59,646 nucleotides of DNA, from positions 1 to 59,646 of the forward strand of contig JAVHOW010000001.1 in assembly GCA_036170235.1 (NCBI GenBank), read 5' to 3'. The translations under genes and the position numbers were made by a program. Source of the DNA: Minisyncoccota bacterium. Lineage in GTDB: Bacteria > Patescibacteriota > Minisyncoccia > Phycocordibacterales > PALSA-1337. The notes under the pieces are model-generated. The model was not told where the DNA came from and made no database searches. It worked only from the letters and a program-made list of their open reading frames with translations. Shown here one piece after another: positions 26,737 through 56,215 of the stretch. Within the stretch, counting starts at the first letter, position 1; each line of letters begins with the position of its first letter.

Positions 26737-26775
26737 CTATCCACAACTTATCAACATAATTTTTCGTTCTCCACA
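26737..26775. promoter_or_regulatory. DnaA-box cluster upstream of dnaA
   Basis: CTATCCACA (26737-26745), TTATCAACA (26748-26756) and TTCTCCACA (26767-26775), each 1-2 mismatches from TTATCCACA. Confidence 0.6.
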
Positions 26776-26822: not shown

Positions 26823-28169
26823 ATGAATGATCACCAGAAAATGTGGCAAACAGCTTTAGTAGAAATAGAAAGTGCTGTATCTCAAGCCAACTTTTCAACA
26901 TGGTTCAAAGATATCAAAATACTTCGAGAGGATAGTGGTGTGATATACCTAGGTGTTCCAAACTCATTTACCCATGAATGGCTCCAAAAGAAGTTCCATA
27001 ACTCAATTTTGCGCATTTTACGCCAAATGAGTGAGAATGTTCGTGCTTTGGAGTACGTTATTGTCAAGGAAGATGGTAAAAACACACCACACGTTCGTAA
27101 AGAACAAATTATGGCACCTACTATAGCTATGCCTTTGCAGGATTTTTACATAAATAAAGACGACAATCTAAATCCTCGTTATACTTTCGAAAATCTCGTT
27201 GTTGGTCCATTCAACGAACTAGCTAATGCCGCATCACAAATGGTAGTAAAAAATCCTGGTGGTGTATACAACCCACTCTTCATTTACGGACAGACTGGTC
27301 GTGGCAAAACACACATGATTCAGGCTGTAGGAAACCAAATAAAGAAGTTACACCCAAATAAAAAAGTATTTTATTTGACTTCAGAACGATTTGGTTCAGA
27401 ACTCTTTGCCGCTATACAAGAAGGAAGGGTTCAACTATTCAAAGATAAATATCGAAAATATGATGTGATTATTATGGATGATGTTCAATTTTTCGCTAGC
27501 AAAGAAAAATTCCAAGAGGAATTGTTCCATTTCTTCAACACTTTCCATGATACCGCTAGACAATTGGTATTCTCCGGCGACAAACACCCAAACGCTATAC
27601 CAGGACTTGAGGATCGTCTCAAAGGACGTTTTGGTATGGGTATGATTGTGGATATACCAGAACCTGATCAAGAATCACGCATAATGATTGTTAGAAGTAA
27701 ATGTGGTACACACAACATCACACTTTCGGATGATACTACCAACTACATAGCCTCATCAATAGAAGACAATATCCGTGAAATAGAGGGTATTATCAATGTG
27801 ATTGCTTGCCAGACACAACTCAAAAATCGTGAATTAAACCTCAATGAAATCCGTGGGATCCTTAAAAACAACGTAAAACCAAGAAAAATGATGTCTGTTG
27901 GTGATGTTGTTAAGATTGTTTCTGAATTTTATAACATAGAACAGGAGAGTATATACAACAAAACCAGAAGAAAGGAGGTGGTTAGACCTAGACAAGTGGT
28001 CATGTATATTTTACGTGAGGATTTTGGTATATCTTTTCCATCAATTGGAGAAAAACTTGGTGGGAGAGACCACACAACTGTTATTCACTCGTACGAAAAG
28101 ATGCGCGAAGAGATAAAAACAGATCAGTTGTTATTACAAGAGATAACCCAAGTACGAACTATGTTATAA
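26823..28169 (+). CDS. dnaA: Chromosomal replication initiator DnaA
   Basis: Walker A GQTGRGKTH, Walker B IIMDDVQF, domain IV ..RPRQVVMYILRE..SFPSIGEKLGGRDHTTVIHS. Confidence 0.97.
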   Translation: MNDHQKMWQTALVEIESAVSQANFSTWFKDIKILREDSGVIYLGVPNSFTHEWLQKKFHNSILRILRQMSENVRALEYVIVKEDGKNTPHVRKEQIMAPTIAMPLQDFYINKDDNLNPRYTFENLVVGPFNELANAASQMVVKNPGGVYNPLFIYGQTGRGKTHMIQAVGNQIKKLHPNKKVFYLTSERFGSELFAAIQEGRVQLFKDKYRKYDVIIMDDVQFFASKEKFQEELFHFFNTFHDTARQLVFSGDKHPNAIPGLEDRLKGRFGMGMIVDIPEPDQESRIMIVRSKCGTHNITLSDDTTNYIASSIEDNIREIEGIINVIACQTQLKNRELNLNEIRGILKNNVKPRKMMSVGDVVKIVSEFYNIEQESIYNKTRRKEVVRPRQVVMYILREDFGISFPSIGEKLGGRDHTTVIHSYEKMREEIKTDQLLLQEITQVRTML

Positions 28170-28412: not shown

Positions 28413-29519
28413 ATGAAGCTAGAAATTAATTGTAAAAAACTAAAAGACGCGGTAGCTCTTATTGAAAGGGTTGCAGGTAAACATCAAACACTACCAGTAC
28501 TTTCTTGTATTCTGTTTGAGGTTACAAAAAACCACCTTTTACTTAAAGCTACAAATCTAGATGTTGGAGTTGAGGTTTCAATACCAATAAAATCAGATGG
28601 TGATAGGGTTATAGCCTTACCAGCACATACAATTTCTTCTTTTTTGTCACAAATAAACGATCAAAACCAAATTGTTACTATAGAGATTGTTTCTGGTAAC
28701 GCGAATATAAAAACAAGTAAATCAAAAGGTGTCATAAAAACCTTACCACCAGAGGATTTTCCAAGTATTCCTAAAATACAAGATGGTCAAGAATACCAAA
28801 TTTCTCCAGAAGATTTCATTAACGGCTTTAATTCAGTGTTTTATAGCGCGTCAATTTCAAGTGTAAAACCAGAACTTTCCAGTGTATATGTATATAAAGA
28901 TGGTGAATATATAACATTTACCGCTACAGACTCATTCCGTCTAGCTGAAAAGAAAATAAAAACACAACTAGCCACAAAAATAAACGATGTTCTTATTCCT
29001 TTTAAAAACATCCAAGACATAATTCGAGTTCTAAGTAGCTTCAATTCAACAACAACGGTTCGTTCCAACAAAAACCTCATTTCATTTGAAAATAATGGAA
29101 CATATATCGTGTCACGAGTTATAGATGGGGTATTTCCTGATTACCGCCAAATTATTCCAAAAACATTCACCACAGAGGTAGTCGCTCTCAAACAAGATAT
29201 TCTCAACGCACTAAAAATATCCAACATTTTCTCTGATAAGTTCAACCAAGTTCATATAACCATAGACCCAAAAGATAAACTATTTGAAATACAGACAAAA
29301 AATAGCGATGTTGGTGAGAATCAAACGATCATTGATGCGGCTTTAACAGGGGATCGTATGGAAATAAACTTTAACTACAAATATGTCACTGACGGTTTTC
29401 AATCAATCAACTCCGATAGTGTTTCTCTACAATTAAATGGACTAAATAAGCCAGTTGTTATACGACCAATATCTGGAGATCAAACATTTTTGTACTTGGT
29501 GATGCCGATGAATCGTTAG
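28413..29519 (+). CDS. dnaN: DNA polymerase III beta sliding clamp
   Basis: 368 aa, three-domain clamp pattern (..TATDSFRLAEK.., ..FPDYRQIIP.., ..LYLVMPM), synteny after dnaA. Confidence 0.93.
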   Translation: MKLEINCKKLKDAVALIERVAGKHQTLPVLSCILFEVTKNHLLLKATNLDVGVEVSIPIKSDGDRVIALPAHTISSFLSQINDQNQIVTIEIVSGNANIKTSKSKGVIKTLPPEDFPSIPKIQDGQEYQISPEDFINGFNSVFYSASISSVKPELSSVYVYKDGEYITFTATDSFRLAEKKIKTQLATKINDVLIPFKNIQDIIRVLSSFNSTTTVRSNKNLISFENNGTYIVSRVIDGVFPDYRQIIPKTFTTEVVALKQDILNALKISNIFSDKFNQVHITIDPKDKLFEIQTKNSDVGENQTIIDAALTGDRMEINFNYKYVTDGFQSINSDSVSLQLNGLNKPVVIRPISGDQTFLYLVMPMNR

Positions 29520-33830: not shown

Positions 33831-34751
33831 CTACTTGTTTAGTTTTTTTGTGGCCTCCACCAACTCCTCACGATGCCTCTTTTGAAGTTGCTTTAATTCT
33901 TTTTTATGCCTTGATTGTATTTTCTTGATATCTTCAGCTCGTGGTAGAGACTCCGGGTATATGCCGCTTTTAACTAGTACCCCACGAACATTGGTGTTAT
34001 TGGTTACATGTTCTTGTAGAATACTACCTTTGCCCTGAAGATTTTTTCGACGCGTATTCTCTGAGGTTATAGAGGTTGCGAATTCTTTCGCAGAAATTGT
34101 TACTTCAGGAAGAACATCGGCCAAAGGTTTTATTTTTTCAATTCCAAGTTTCTTTTTCATATCATCAGTAGTTTTTCCACCAAACAAGGCTTTGTCGCCA
34201 AAGCTCCTGATTTCAGATATCCCCTGACCATCCACACCCCGATTGAATGCCAGGGCTGCAAAAGCCTTTTCGGTCAACGTCAGCTTTTCTCGAGAACCAA
34301 TTCTTTCAAACTCGGTCATTCTCTGCTAAATTACTTCCATTTTTCTGGTTTGGGTGACGAAATAGGCTTGGGCGAAGGCGACTTCTTGTTTTCTGGGGTC
34401 ACTATTTAAGGTGACTAGGTAACACGCGTATCTCGTTAATTTAACATCCTCGACCTCTTTTTCGGCTCCGCTACCTATCTTGACCATCTTCCTGACGCCA
34501 GGAAAATGGTTAGTAATAGAACCACCAGCATTTTCACAGGCTTCTTTAGCCCGTTGTATAGCTGTTAGGAAGTTTTCCCATTTGGTATAACCAAGTAAAG
34601 GATACAAATCTCGCGCATACCAATACTCTACGCCATTTTCGCGGCGCACATTATCAAAAGTTTGGTACAAAGATTGAAGTTGCGTGTTTTCCATATCATA
34701 AGTGTACACCTTCAAATAATTTTGGGAACTTCCGCGACCAATTTTTTTCAT
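33831..34751 (-). pseudogene. dinD: DNA-damage-inducible protein D (DinD) homolog interrupted by one in-frame TAG (34326-34328)
   Basis: ORFs 34326-34751 and 33831-34319 are in the same frame: ..RKMEVI-TAG-QR-MTEFER... The upstream part matches E. coli DinD (..RAKEACEN.G..I..HF...MVKIGS.A......L.RYACYLV....DP......AQ.YF..QTR). The downstream part continues the DinD C-terminal region. Confidence 0.7.
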
Positions 34752-34772: not shown

Positions 34773-35783
34773 TTACAACAACTTCGCGGCACCCTTCTCA
34801 CCCATATGAGCATACGCCTTGTCAGTCGCAATTCTTCCTCTTGGAGTACGCTCAAGTAACCCCAACTGAATCAAGTATGGCTCATACACTTCTTCAATAG
34901 TTGCTTGTTCTTCAGAGAGAGCAGCCGCTATCGTATTTAATCCAACAGGACCACCTCCGAATTTATTTATTATGACTTTGAGTATCTCGCGATCGGCTCC
35001 AGTGAGACCAATAATATCCACACCAAGCATCGTCAAAGCTTTTTCAACAACTTCTTTGGTTAAAGTAGTTTTGTTTATTTGGGCATAGTCGCGACATCGT
35101 TTCAAATGGTAATTGGCTGTACGAGGTGTGAATCGTGAACGAACGGCTATTTCTTTGACAGCATCAGGGTGAATTTCTATATCTAAAATCTTTGCTGAAC
35201 GCTTAATAATTTCAGCTATCTCATTATCAGAATAAAATTCGAGCTTAAATACACCTCCAGAGAAGCGAGATCGTAGTGGCGAAGAAATCATGGCTATCCT
35301 GGTAGTCGCGGCAATTAAAGTAAACGGGGGTAGGTCGAGTTGAATCGTTCTTGCAGAAGGACCTTTGCCTATGATAATATCGAGCACTCCTGACTCCATT
35401 GCAGGATAAAGTACTTCTTCTATAGCTTTGTTGAGACGATGTATCTCATCTATAAAAAGAATGTCTCCAGCTGATAAGTTGGTGACGATTGAAGCGAGGT
35501 CGCCCACTTTGAGAATAGCTGGACCGGAAGTAACTTTCATTTGAGCGCCAGTTTCTTTTGCAATCAAATGAGCCAGAGTAGTCTTGCCGAGTCCAGGTGG
35601 ACCATAGAAAAGAATGTGTTCGGGGGGATGTTTTCGTTCTTGGGCGGCCGTAAGTAGGATGTGGAGGTTATCTTTGATGTTTTTCTGACCAATATATTCA
35701 TCCCAGCGTGCAGGTCGAAGAGTTTGGTCAAGAAAACCAACATCTTTATCGTCAGTAGGGGATTGTTGAATGGGTATTGACAT
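34773..35783 (-). CDS. ruvB: Holliday junction branch migration ATPase RuvB
   Basis: LRPARWDEYIGQ, Walker A GPPGLGKTT, Walker B ILFIDEIHRL, sensor ..TTR..., C-terminal winged helix. Confidence 0.96.
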   Translation of the reverse strand: MSIPIQQSPTDDKDVGFLDQTLRPARWDEYIGQKNIKDNLHILLTAAQERKHPPEHILFYGPPGLGKTTLAHLIAKETGAQMKVTSGPAILKVGDLASIVTNLSAGDILFIDEIHRLNKAIEEVLYPAMESGVLDIIIGKGPSARTIQLDLPPFTLIAATTRIAMISSPLRSRFSGGVFKLEFYSDNEIAEIIKRSAKILDIEIHPDAVKEIAVRSRFTPRTANYHLKRCRDYAQINKTTLTKEVVEKALTMLGVDIIGLTGADREILKVIINKFGGGPVGLNTIAAALSEEQATIEEVYEPYLIQLGLLERTPRGRIATDKAYAHMGEKGAAKLL

Positions 35784-35805
35784 TTTAATATGGTTATGCT
35801 AGTGT
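35777..35805 (+). promoter_or_regulatory. Sigma70-type promoter: TTGACA -17 nt- (TGc)TAGTGT driving the structured RNA locus
   Basis: Perfect -35 hexamer at 35777-35782, 17-nt spacer containing TG at 35797-35798, -10 TAGTGT at 35800-35805. Predicted TSS about 35812. Confidence 0.5.
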
Positions 35806-35811
35806 ACTAGT

Positions 35812-36100
35812 GAAGAAGCAGGATTTTGGATTCATGATTCAGGAATAGTCACAAGGCGCGCTTTGTGTTTATTCTTGAATCTTGAATCCTGCATCTTGTT
35901 TCAATGTGCTCAAATCGAGCTCGTGAACCTCTAAGCAATGGCCTTCCCAGGTTTGGGTATAGTGCTAAGGACATTATGGTTGTAACGCTTCGGTGTTACG
36001 TACTGGAATTATCCTCGGGACTCTACCTCGCTTGATGCATCACGCATCGAGATATTGCTTAGAGATTCTCGCGTTTGAACCTCTTGATTCAAACTTCTTC
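35812..36100 (+). ncRNA. Candidate about 290-nt structured non-coding RNA of unrecognised class
   Basis: 380-bp ORF-free gap. About 75-nt hairpin at 35818-35892 (5 bp + 18 bp + CACAA/TTGTG cap). 12-bp long-range helix 35929-35940/36053-36064, extended by 35920-35927/36066-36073. C(UUCG)G-capped hairpin 35982-35999. GATGC/GCATC hairpin 36034-36048. 3' hairpin 36073-36094 followed by TTCTTCT. G-U pairs (35842-35875, 35987-35994) would be C-A on the other strand, which favours + orientation. Confidence 0.5.
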
Positions 36101-36163
36101 TAATAAATAGCCTAGCGCTATCCACAGCTAAAAAGCAATTGACTATGGTGCTTTTTGTCTGGT

Positions 36164-36484
36164 TTAATATGTTAATTTGCCGTGCTCCTTGGCATCATTT
36201 TGAAAAGCTTTTTGTACCTGATTCAACGCATTTTGATGTACGAGTTTTTCCCGTTGAATACGGGCGATTTCTTGTTTTATTTTGTCGGCATCTGTTTTGT
36301 CTACATACATTGCATGCTGGTCATCTTCAATTTGTCTTCGCAATCTCGGCACCTCCTGTCCTTTTTTAAGAAGATCTTCTTGGGCTACACGAAACTTTTC
36401 TTGTAAGTCACGCAACTCCTGAGTCTCTTTTTGCATTTCGTCATGAAGATGTTTTATTGTTTCAGGAATATTCGTTTTTTGCAT
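36164..36484 (-). CDS. Small coiled-coil protein, unknown function
   Basis: 106 codons, heptad-rich charged sequence, 50 nt downstream of pilB on the same strand. Confidence 0.5.
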   Translation of the reverse strand: MQKTNIPETIKHLHDEMQKETQELRDLQEKFRVAQEDLLKKGQEVPRLRRQIEDDQHAMYVDKTDADKIKQEIARIQREKLVHQNALNQVQKAFQNDAKEHGKLTY

Positions 36485-51853: not shown

Positions 51854-51936
51854 ATTTTCCGCTTCTAGTGCCCGCGACCATGAATCACCTAACCTCCAAA
51901 GATGGGCGAGCGTGGGCGAATAACGACCGTGGTTAG

Positions 51937-52206
51937 CATGACGATTTAGCGATTTCTCGTGTAAGACATTGTTTACGGATTCTTGGGGAACATGGTCACT
52001 TGTTAGATATGCCAGATTCTAAAAGCTTAGGTAAGGGTCTGTTCGAACTAAGAACTCAAGGCAAGATAAGAGTCAGAATTCTATATATATTTCATAAAAA
52101 TAGAGCATATGTGATCCATGGTTTTGTAAAAAAGGCTTGGAAGATAAGCTTAAAAGACATCAATTACGCTCGTCGAATGCAGAAAGAGATTATAGAGCTT
52201 GCATAA
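51937..52206 (+). pseudogene. RelE/ParE-superfamily toxin (HigB / phage Gp49-like), N-terminally truncated
   Basis: ..LGEHGHLLDMPDSKSLGKGLFELRTQGKIRVRILYIFHKNRAYVIHGFVKK matches Gp49/HigB-type toxins. The homologous frame is closed by a TAG at 51934 with no ATG/GTG before the TTG at 52000, so about 25-30 N-terminal residues are missing. Confidence 0.55.
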
Positions 52207-52235
52207 TATATCATATATGATATATTACTGATAAT

Positions 52236-52502
52236 ATGAAAACATTTAAACAATTTGAAGAAGAATTTTTGAAAGATCCAGCCAAAAAGAAGGCTTATGA
52301 TAGTCTTGAGGTTGAATTCAAGATCCATAGCGCGCTCGTTAGGGCTCGTATTGAAAAGAAACTTACACAAAAAGAGCTGGCAAAGAAATTAGGCATTACC
52401 CAATCAAACCTAGCACGCTTTGAATCAGGTAGAACAAATCCAACCCTTTCTTTTCTCCAGAAGATTACTTCTGGATTGGGTTTGAGAATTACAATTGTTT
52501 GA
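52236..52502 (+). CDS. XRE-family helix-turn-helix antitoxin (HigA-like)
   Basis: ..LTQKELAKKLGITQSNLARFESGRTNPTLSFLQKI.. HTH_3 motif. Follows the toxin gene by 29 nt. Confidence 0.8.
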   Translation: MKTFKQFEEEFLKDPAKKKAYDSLEVEFKIHSALVRARIEKKLTQKELAKKLGITQSNLARFESGRTNPTLSFLQKITSGLGLRITIV

Positions 52503-52515
52503 TATATAAAAAATA

Positions 52516-55207: not shown

Positions 55208-55389
55208 GTCAACATCTTTCTATTTTTTGTCTTTTAGGATCATAGTCTTGCGGACATCACTGTTGGCTTGCGACCACCAGTAACACGATTTCTCGTTATG
55301 TAATCCAAAATAGTCAGACAGCTATTCTGTCATAAGTATGGCATTTTCAACACTATTTGTCAATACTTTGACGATTTCGTCAAATATGT

Positions 55390-55790
55390 GCTGTAGTATG
55401 GCTCTGTTAAGCCACCCTGTAAACCATGGTCGTTATTCGCCATCCGTGCCTACAGCACTTTCGGAAAGTGATGCGCAGGACGCTTGTAGATTAGGGCATG
55501 TCACCTCAGCCCATAACCACGGATATCATTCGCGACTAGCACGCATCGGTACTGCGTAGTGTCCCACTGTCTGTGTGTTTACAGACTGTGGGAAAACACG
55601 AGGCAGTACGGATGTGTGCGTTAAAGTCGCGTCACATACGCTATCAGGGCTGAGGTGGGCATGCCCGTCTCTCTCATACCATGCGCCCTATCAAGCGGCC
55701 GCGCATGACTTTCCTGCGATTGAAAGTGCTGTTGGGGCGGGTGGCGCCACTATCCACCATTTTGCCTTGCATTGTAATCTGGCAGGTATA
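55390..55790 (-). ncRNA. rnpB: RNase P RNA (bacterial ribozyme); ends approximate
   Basis: Minus-strand reading contains CAGGAAAGUC (55715-55706; CR-I/P4 5' strand), GAUAGGGCGCAUGG (like E. coli CAUAGGGCAGG) and ACAGGGUGGCUUA (55419-55407; CR-V/P4 3' strand), with AAGUCAU pairing to GUGGCUU. Long covarying helices: GGGCAUG-CC-CACCUCAGCCC with GGGCUGAGGUG-A-CAUGCCC; CAUGCGC/GCGCAUG; 12-bp hairpin 55562-55591. G+C-rich, no credible ORF. Confidence 0.75.
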
Positions 55791-56062
55791 AAATACAGGT
55801 TAGGTACAGTAACGATCTTTGATTTGAACTCTGCACGCTAAATCAATCAAAATTCCTCAACAAATAAATTACTAAATCCCTTTATGGGCTAGCACCATTC
55901 ATTTTCGATACTGTGGTCGGTATCAATTATTTCATTACCAGCTAGAAATTTCAAATACAAAAACTTAGAGGTCCAAAATAATATAAGTGCTCACATAGAA
56001 ACCTAGTCACCAGGTCTCTTTTTCGTTTATCTCAAAGTCTTTTTCTGTACCTATGAAAATAG

Positions 56063-56215
56063 GTGCCTTTCTCATACCCACAAAACTTAATCGACAGGAT
56101 CACTGCTTACTACAAAAGTAAGGGTGTAACTTTGACACCTGAACAAGCCGAGGAGTATCTAAACTCCCTGGCTGATCTATACGAGTCGTTCATTGAGTTT
56201 GCCAAAATTCCATGA
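56063..56215 (+). CDS. Possible 50-codon ORF translationally coupled to Rep (GTG start, ATGA overlap)
   Basis: Not in the ORF track. (M)PFSYPQNLIDRITAYYKSKGVTLTPEQAEEYLNSLADLYESFIEFAKIP-stop. The TGA overlaps the Rep ATG. Confidence 0.3.
   Translation: MPFSYPQNLIDRITAYYKSKGVTLTPEQAEEYLNSLADLYESFIEFAKIP

Follow-up and report, generated by a model that had tools for sequence, protein, structure and literature searches.

A conserved structured RNA gene predicted divergent from ruvB in Paceibacteria

From a comparative analysis of 59,646 nucleotides of Minisyncoccota bacterium DNA (contig JAVHOW010000001.1, positions 1 to 59,646, hereafter the window), we describe a predicted RNA gene in the 380-bp gap (35784-36163) that separates the ruvB start from the 3' end of a minus-strand open reading frame (ORF) of 106 aa. 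A preliminary description, made from the letters alone, had placed here a stand-alone structured non-coding RNA (ncRNA) of about 290 nt on the plus strand, belonging to no recognised class. Judged from its sequence and that of its relatives, the locus is shown to be an independent, conserved and structured plus-strand RNA gene lying outside every family tested; the promoter, the covariation in helices P1, P3 and P4, the strand and the family tests all support this. The structured locus stands, but its conserved extent had been overestimated, the conserved unit being a core of about 165 nt (35914-36079) and not the whole 290 nt. As far as sampled, the core family appears to be restricted to Paceibacteria (Patescibacteria/candidate phyla radiation, CPR). 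Our best reading is that the core represents a new RNA family, in kind a stand-alone, probably protein-binding structured small RNA (sRNA). The elements of the locus are listed below.

34773-35783, minus strand: ruvB, with RuvB_N, AAA_lid_4 and RuvB_C domains
35777-35805, plus strand: RNA promoter, with -35 TTGACA (35777-35782), a 17-nt spacer and the extended -10 TGc-TAGTGT (TGCTAGTGT; 35797-35805)
35781-35783, minus strand: ruvB start codon (CAT on the plus strand), inside the -35 hexamer of the RNA promoter
35815-35902, plus strand: leader hairpin of heptad repeats, 88 nt, near-perfect (-47.4 kcal/mol, z = -7.0)
35915-35940, plus strand: 5' strand of P1, the closing helix, its inner block CCTCTAAGCAATG conserved in sequence
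35941-35952, plus strand: P2 (GCCU-UCCC-AGGU), a small variable hairpin directly after P1
35955-36028, plus strand: P3, a long irregular hairpin
36031-36051, plus strand: P4 (CUUGAUGC-AUCAC-GCAUCGAG), a hairpin of 8-9 bp abutting the 3' strand of P1
36053-36078, plus strand: 3' strand of P1 (TATTGCTTAGAGATTCTCGCGTTTGA)
36073-36101, plus strand: 3' hairpin GTTTGAA..TTCAAAC (36073-36094) followed by TTCTTCT, overlapping outer P1
36125-36161: A-tract/stem/T-tract hairpin AAAAAGCA..TGCTTTTT

Relatives were collected with RuvB as an anchor in GTDB contigs, one genome per species, and the regions upstream of the ruvB loci (numbered L001 onwards) were examined. The best loci came from Paceibacteria-type Patescibacteria, namely Zambryski-, Kaiser-, Nomura- and Ryanbacteria and 'Minisyncoccia'. 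Using nhmmer and blastn, the central 170 nt of the gap was matched upstream of ruvB in the closest loci, and the core was recognised in L001-L018 on reading the upstream regions. A covariance model built from 19 cores then added weaker copies from L022 (Sungiibacteriota), L066 and L071, each likewise upstream of ruvB, giving 19 + 3 = 22 GTDB species genomes in which the core was located via RuvB alone. The same model found no copy in the ruvB loci of Chloroflexota, Bacillota and other groups. At least 120 loci were obtained from metagenome contigs by a sequence-pattern scan; of the 120 matches listed, the covariance model scored 113 as strong (65-130 bits) and seven as chance. Because the search pattern itself required ATCTCTAAG, AGGAC and TTAGAGAT, these blocks are necessarily invariant in the metagenome set. 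Most members of the RuvB-anchored set also keep the inner P1 block and AGGAC, the exceptions being L003, L008, L014 and L018.

Covariation was examined in two alignments. The first consisted of 19 RuvB-anchored sequences aligned with MAFFT and not fitted to the structure. Here 82.5% of the cells were paired, against 66.6% after column shuffling and 39-51% after sliding; changes on both sides were seen in 52 of 61 pairs, and P1 was 93% paired with 25 of its 27 pairs covarying. Among 95 model-aligned sequences, pairing amounted to 86.4% (shuffled, 71.2%) and to 94.5% in P1. Compensatory changes in P1 involve 23-25 of the 27 pairs across both sets, all eight P4 pairs are altered on both sides in the 95-sequence set, and the outer and inner helices of P3 covary. 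The changes include a whole-helix replacement in L014 (UUAUCCGAGCGAU / AUCGCUCGGAUAA) and, in L022, a change of AA to GG paired with one of UU to CC. RNAalifold independently recovers P1, segments of P3, and P4. Since the AGGA/UCCU pairing of P3 never varies, it is not proven by covariation. The preliminary description had proposed homology and covariation searches in CPR relatives together with an Rfam scan; the former revealed this conserved core with its compensatory changes and the latter, given below, matched no family.

The alignments also indicate the transcribed strand. In the family G.U and U.G pairs number 723 and A.C and C.A pairs 202, a ratio of 3.6 to 1. At column pair 24/206 of P1, 51 sequences have G.U, 41 have G-C and one has A.C; the pair 86/131 is U.G in 82, and the pair 88/130 is G.U in 80. 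Because of this G.U excess, and because positions that are mostly G.U would be mismatches on the other strand, the transcribed strand is taken to be the plus strand of the window, as had been favoured before. Region 35806-36105 folds on this strand at -121 kcal/mol (z = -9.9), a value equalled by none of 200 shuffles; the minus strand of the same region gives -97 kcal/mol (z = -7.4), 24 kcal/mol less favourable. It is very improbable that the minus strand is the functional one, either as a structured 5' untranslated region (UTR) of ruvB or as a pilB-ruvB intercistronic element: it too folds well and both neighbouring genes are read from it, but its mostly-G.U positions would become C.A, and the conserved promoter and the U-run lie on the plus strand.

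The -35 hexamer, extended -10 and 17-nt spacer of the preliminary description are all in place, and the promoter is conserved on the plus strand in relatives. The pattern TTGACA-N12-16-TGnTAnnnT occurs at two sites in the 59.6-kb window, against 0.35 expected, and the RNA promoter is the top promoter match within the window. A transcription start site (TSS) at about 35811-35813 is inferred from it. Of 116 loci with enough upstream DNA, 103 carry TTGACA-N13/14-T(G/A)nTAnnnT 21-300 nt 5' of P1. Furthermore, in 75 of 104 related loci, as in the window, the -35 element overlaps, within TTGACAT, a CAT at which the long reading frame of ruvB starts on the opposite strand. The first RuvB codons are fixed by this overlap as Met-Ser. 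Among the matches listed, ruvB is divergent and upstream in all 105 family members with enough flank, pilB converges downstream of the RNA in 85 loci, and eight loci keep ruvB with pilB gone. No same-strand gene follows the RNA; in the window it is followed by the converging 106-aa ORF, which has no Pfam match, and then by a T2SSE/PilB-type ATPase gene. A search with the exact RuvB protein returned one 8.6-kb contig, which ends inside the RNA leader.

The minimum free energy (MFE) folds of all 19 anchor sequences share one architecture, made up of P1, P2, P3 and P4. P1 measures 25-30 bp across the family and about 26 bp in the window, where CTCTAAGCAATG (35929-35940) pairs with TATTGCTTAGAG (36053-36064) in its inner part. 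The 12-bp long-range helix noticed earlier is thus present, but its true extent is about 26 bp (35915-35940/36053-36078). P2 was judged by folding each sequence singly, since MAFFT failed to align it. It is often capped by UNCG, weak in the largest subgroup and missing in seven of 95 members, and hence dispensable; P1 and P3 are separated by 3 to 34 nt, by just 3 nt in seven of the 95, and in some members this segment is a stable UNCG-type hairpin. In P3 an outer helix of about 11 bp gives way to the AGGA/UCCU segment and a 1x2 internal loop (C / UA). Beyond this loop come a short helix, which covaries, and a U.G / G.U / G-C motif, and the hairpin ends in a tip that varies. AGGA stands at a constant distance from the junction, and in the window the invariant motifs are AGGA(C) at 35968-35972 facing UAUCCU at 36010-36015. 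The UUCG-capped hairpin of the preliminary description proved to be the tip of P3 in the window (CTTCGG, 35988-35993), and its GATGC/GCATC hairpin (36034-36048) is P4. Across the family the tips of P2 and P3 are UUCG, CUCG, CUUG or variable, and those of P3 include UUUA. The family consensus contains few unpaired conserved nucleotides, and the junction between the helices is almost fully paired.

The sequences on either side of the core are far less constant. The leader varies in sequence and length among relatives, and the heptad-repeat hairpin occupying it here, previously drawn as a hairpin of 75 nt, is real but no part of the conserved RNA: searches found no homologue in 200 related loci, and within the window it occurs only once. 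This hairpin is specific to this genome; being single-copy and without homologues, it was rejected as a repeat or mobile element. Similarly, the 3' hairpin with its TTCTTCT, which had been offered as the terminator of the RNA, exists, but it competes with outer P1 for pairing, was not called in a terminator scan of the window and has no counterpart in any relative, including the closest (L001). It is a weak terminator candidate. In relatives the terminator appears to be P1 followed by a U-run, a T-run standing directly after P1 in 66 of the 120 loci (among the matches listed), often with a matching A-rich 5' flank. Further downstream, the hairpin at 36125-36161 may terminate transcription from both sides, serving the converging 106-aa ORF as well as the RNA. 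A short motif (G/T)CAATTGAC(A) is conserved about 50-90 nt downstream of the RNA in L001-L004, the closest relatives; CAATTGAC stands at 36131-36146 in the window, in the loop of the A-tract/T-tract hairpin, and might be a -35 element or an operator. A small ORF following the SD-like (Shine-Dalgarno-like) AAGGAC was considered and rejected, as its start position reads ATG, CTG, TTG, CCG or TCG among the aligned sequences.

Two features of the leaders concern ruvB and replication. Of 104 leaders, 47 contain ATTATAGCA; read on the ruvB strand this gives TGCTATAAT, an extended -10. In a large subgroup (L093, L098, L101, L102, L107, L116, L119, L124, L132 and others) the sequence TTATCAACA-N3-TATCAACA-N4-TATCAACA lies between the promoter and P1, so that these leaders contain three direct DnaA-box-like 9-mers, followed by ATTATAGCA and a second plus-strand -10 (TAGTATAAT). 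This arrangement suggests that DnaA could control the RNA, ruvB or both in the subgroup. In the window itself, dnaA (26823-28169) is followed by dnaN (28413-29519), with three DnaA-box-like 9-mers just upstream (26737-26775). The 26.7-29.5 kb segment is likely to be the oriC region, and the presence there of the box cluster, dnaA and dnaN places the RNA gene near oriC, at a distance of about 8-9 kb and co-directional with the rightward fork. A single DnaA-box-like CTATCCACA occurs just downstream of the RNA, at 36118-36126. An origin at the RNA locus was rejected for the window, given the boxes and dnaA-dnaN at 26.7-29.5 kb and no GC-skew switch at 36 kb.

The locus was compared with known RNA families. 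Rfam 15 returned only three tRNAs from the whole window at the gathering threshold. At E <= 10 there was nothing meaningful on 35600-36300 or on positions 880-1180 of L011, a relative without the window-specific leader hairpin, and only tRNAs and noise in the whole window and at 51.3-56.3 kb. ARAGORN likewise found three tRNAs in the window and no transfer-messenger RNA (tmRNA). A tmRNA, with its tRNA-like domain and tag reading frame, was discarded on the result of both programs. Signal recognition particle (SRP) RNA had no Rfam match either, and the family consensus shows no domain IV sequence and no conserved GNRA at the P3 tip; on tmRNA and SRP, ARAGORN, Rfam and the consensus agree with the preliminary description. 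RNase P RNA was rejected for this locus, there being no conserved region I (CR-I, GGAAAGUCC) or V (CR-V, ACAGAA..GGCUUA) at 35.8-36.1 kb, and the core measuring 165 nt versus about 300-400 nt. A mobile-element RNA, such as that of a miniature inverted-repeat transposable element (MITE), an omega or bridge RNA, or a retron msr-msd, was likewise discarded: the RNA is single-copy in the window, its neighbours are ruvB and pilB, and searches of phages, plasmids and viral contigs gave no match to it. A riboswitch or cis-acting 5' leader was also rejected, because the downstream gene converges and P1 is 25-30 bp long; the absence of a same-strand gene downstream in the window and in relatives agrees with the earlier opinion that a leader is unlikely. 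We searched the literature and found no description of this RNA, of a 6S-type RNA or of lineage-specific RNAs in CPR/Patescibacteria.

RNase P-like motifs were observed elsewhere in the window, on the minus strand at about 55395-55770, inside a 1004-nt gap (55208-56211). A whole-window pattern search gave a CR-I-like GCAGGAAAGUCAUGCGC at about 55.72 kb and a CR-V-like ACAGGGUGGCUUAAC / UUUACAGGGUGGCUUAACAGAGCC at about 55.41 kb, some 300 nt apart. Rfam reports no RNase P match at 55.40-55.77 kb even at E <= 10. Nonetheless, the motifs make 55395-55770 a probable, divergent RNase P RNA of this genome, and the earlier claim that such an RNA lies elsewhere in the window, which has no Rfam match behind it, is probably right. 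In 10 of 35 complete CPR genomes, finding the RNase P RNA needed sub-threshold searches (PMC8172020). Taken with the failure of Rfam to recover the probable RNase P RNA of this genome, this makes an absent Rfam match weak evidence against distant homology in this lineage.

What, then, might the RNA do? A large part of bacterial diversity belongs to the CPR/Patescibacteria, whose genomes are tiny and contain little non-coding DNA. Retention of the core across the whole class, the best promoter of the window and the extensive covariation make functional importance very likely. The loops of P2 and P3 are variable or UNCG, conservation resides in helices, internal loops and the junction, and the AGGA distance is fixed; this points to recognition by a protein along the helices and not to target pairing or ligand binding. 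As a working model, transcription would start at the near-consensus sigma-70-type promoter, whose -35 overlaps the ruvB start on the opposite strand, and would pass through a variable leader (with an 88-nt extra hairpin in this genome) into the core of about 165 nt. P1 with its U-run would double as the terminator in about half of the lineages. The core would act in trans as a protein-binding scaffold or decoy, and the overlapping head-to-head promoters would probably couple transcription of the RNA negatively to that of ruvB. Transcriptional interference of this kind is a likely side effect of the overlap. We regard it as secondary, because it leaves the conserved core unexplained.

For a generic trans-acting ribonucleoprotein (RNP) role, the 6S-like case included, we put the chances at about even. 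A little below that stands a narrower proposal, that the RNA is no 6S analogue and more than an antisense device: it would be the RNA subunit or decoy of an undescribed, Paceibacteria-specific RNP, and its synthesis would be wired to chromosome biology. The wiring is proposed because the promoter is fused with the ruvB start, oriC is about 8 kb away from the gene, and the leaders of a large subgroup contain DnaA boxes. If a specific role is to be named, a decoy for the RNA polymerase holoenzyme, by analogy with 6S RNA, is our leading guess, albeit one that we rate as rather unlikely. The earlier argument that the RNA is too long to be 6S fails, the conserved RNA being only about 165 nt.

Several observations weigh against these interpretations. 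As regards 6S, RF00013 had no match at E <= 10 on the locus or on L011, and the family covariance model gave at most 5 bits on E. coli 6S RNA (ssrS), which as a positive control scores 139.8 bits for 6S with the same tool. The junction is nearly all paired, and in the seven of 95 members noted above P1 and P3 are only 3 nt apart. Membership of the 6S family itself was rejected, as there is no reciprocal model match and no obligatory open 5' bubble. More generally, the RNA and its ends are predicted from sequence; the gene context gives no functional hint beyond ruvB; in the metagenome set, the inner P1 block and AGGAC are invariant partly through the choice of search pattern; and the tight linkage to ruvB could mean a role in cis.

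That last possibility gives the strongest rival, though we think it improbable. The element would be mainly a cis regulator of ruvB, acting through a strong antisense promoter that sits on the start codon and faces the ruvB promoter, by occlusion, by collision or by pairing of the leader with the ruvB 5' UTR, and the core would serve only to stabilise the transcript, terminate it and shield pilB. The -35/ATG overlap in 75 of the 104 loci and the unbroken retention of divergent ruvB, even where pilB is gone, speak for such a regulator, as do the ATTATAGCA leaders with their ruvB-strand extended -10, the three DnaA-box-like repeats that one subgroup has in the overlap, and a P1 A-tract and U-tract resembling a bidirectional terminator. 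However, the overlapping promoters suffice to explain the linkage, the window's leader holds no recognisable minus-strand promoter, and the RNA as transcribed lies clear of the ruvB coding sequence. A terminator or stabiliser has no need of an insert of 110 nt whose geometry is fixed, whose internal motifs are invariant and whose helices P3 and P4 covary.

Still less probable, in our view, is a very divergent housekeeping RNA missed by Rfam in CPR, with 6S as the realistic candidate and SRP, RNase P and tmRNA as the others. Rfam does overlook the apparent RNase P RNA of this genome, CPR versions of that RNA are often sub-threshold (PMC8172020), and the RNA resembles 6S in size, in its strong promoter and variable leader, and in having two long stems, one of them closing. 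Each candidate nonetheless meets an obstacle: 6S, the lack of a reciprocal model match and a three- or four-way junction instead of a bubble; tmRNA, the negative ARAGORN result; SRP, a consensus lacking domain IV and a P3 tip lacking a conserved GNRA; and RNase P, the motifs found elsewhere in the window and a 165-nt size that is too small.

A ligand-sensing riboswitch controlling antisense read-through into pilB is very improbable. In its favour are an aptamer-like junction fold closed by P1, which would be the terminator stem, and the pilB genes converging downstream in 85 loci. At 25-30 bp P1 cannot switch, few unpaired nucleotides are conserved, and eight loci keep the RNA with no pilB downstream (both counts among the matches listed). 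A DNA-level element, in which AATCTCTAAGCAAT and ATTGCTTAGAGATT, the two conserved arms, would be inverted sites for protein binding or the element as a whole just a bidirectional terminator, is about as remote as a minus-strand function: the inner P1 block is indeed conserved in sequence beyond its pairing and adjoins promoters and, in some relatives, DnaA boxes, but the variation is asymmetric, G.U being tolerated and A.C not (51 against one at column pair 24/206), the interior helices P3 and P4 covary, and the arms are about 110 bp apart.

Two other parts of the window may be recorded. On the minus strand at 33831-34751, a gene with a Bro-N domain (34326-34751; 141 aa) precedes, by 7 nt, a 162-aa ORF without a Pfam match; together they look like a split DinD/Bro-type gene, and the pair sits between ruvB and a short (176-aa) YebC/TACO1 homologue. 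In addition, 662 nt at 51854-52515 contain no ORF of at least 90 aa and no Rfam match.

Should the RNA be a 6S analogue, regulation of polymerase by RNA decoys would extend to CPR, with promoter mimicry of a junction type; should it not be, it would be a new RNP RNA in organisms beyond the reach of present genetics. If the reading as a Paceibacteria RNP is true, it would define a CPR-specific housekeeping RNA class linking the state of replication or repair to a cellular target. In either case, the model and alignment allow annotation of the RNA in thousands of metagenome-assembled genomes and a search of existing groundwater metatranscriptomes, and the way in which its promoter is fused to the ruvB start is a compact, conserved case of overlapping genetic signals.

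Among known systems, the housekeeping SRP (4.5S) and RNase P RNAs share with the core paired ends and conserved internal loops, and their CPR versions are divergent (PMC8172020). Unlike them, the core shows neither a domain IV motif nor a conserved GNRA loop when its consensus and loops are read, and the CR-I/CR-V motifs of RNase P helix P4 are absent as well. Excludon-type overlapping promoters and cis-antisense RNAs offer a parallel for an RNA promoter on the start codon of a neighbour, with a putative ruvB -10 in the leader. Cis-antisense RNAs, however, typically lack a conserved covarying multi-helix domain of 165 nt, and here the conserved part lies outside the overlap. The raiA motif, OLE, ROOL and HEARO were similarly defined by covariation and synteny, with their own promoter and terminator, a lineage-restricted distribution and a function that was unknown at discovery; the present RNA differs in having no Rfam 15 match, and its core is far smaller than OLE or ROOL and is without their marker genes.

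The closest comparison is with 6S RNA (SsrS, RF00013). 6S RNA binds the sigma-70 holoenzyme, and the unpaired 5' side of its bubble is the template for product RNAs (pRNA). 6S has an open bubble of 13-16 nt where the core has a tight three- or four-way junction whose 5' side goes down to 3 nt; the stems of the core contain sequence-invariant blocks, and neither model matches the other's RNA. On the other hand, both are stand-alone ncRNAs, about 150-200 nt long and driven by a strong promoter of the sigma-70 type. Both have a long end-to-end closing stem, a second long stem that is irregular and spans about two helical turns, and a small central hairpin on the 3' side; in each, the two helical arms are some 25 bp in length. 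In E. coli, ssrS is transcribed from tandem promoters and its leader is processed; in the present family, too, the start can be far upstream, with a second plus-strand -10 in some relatives.

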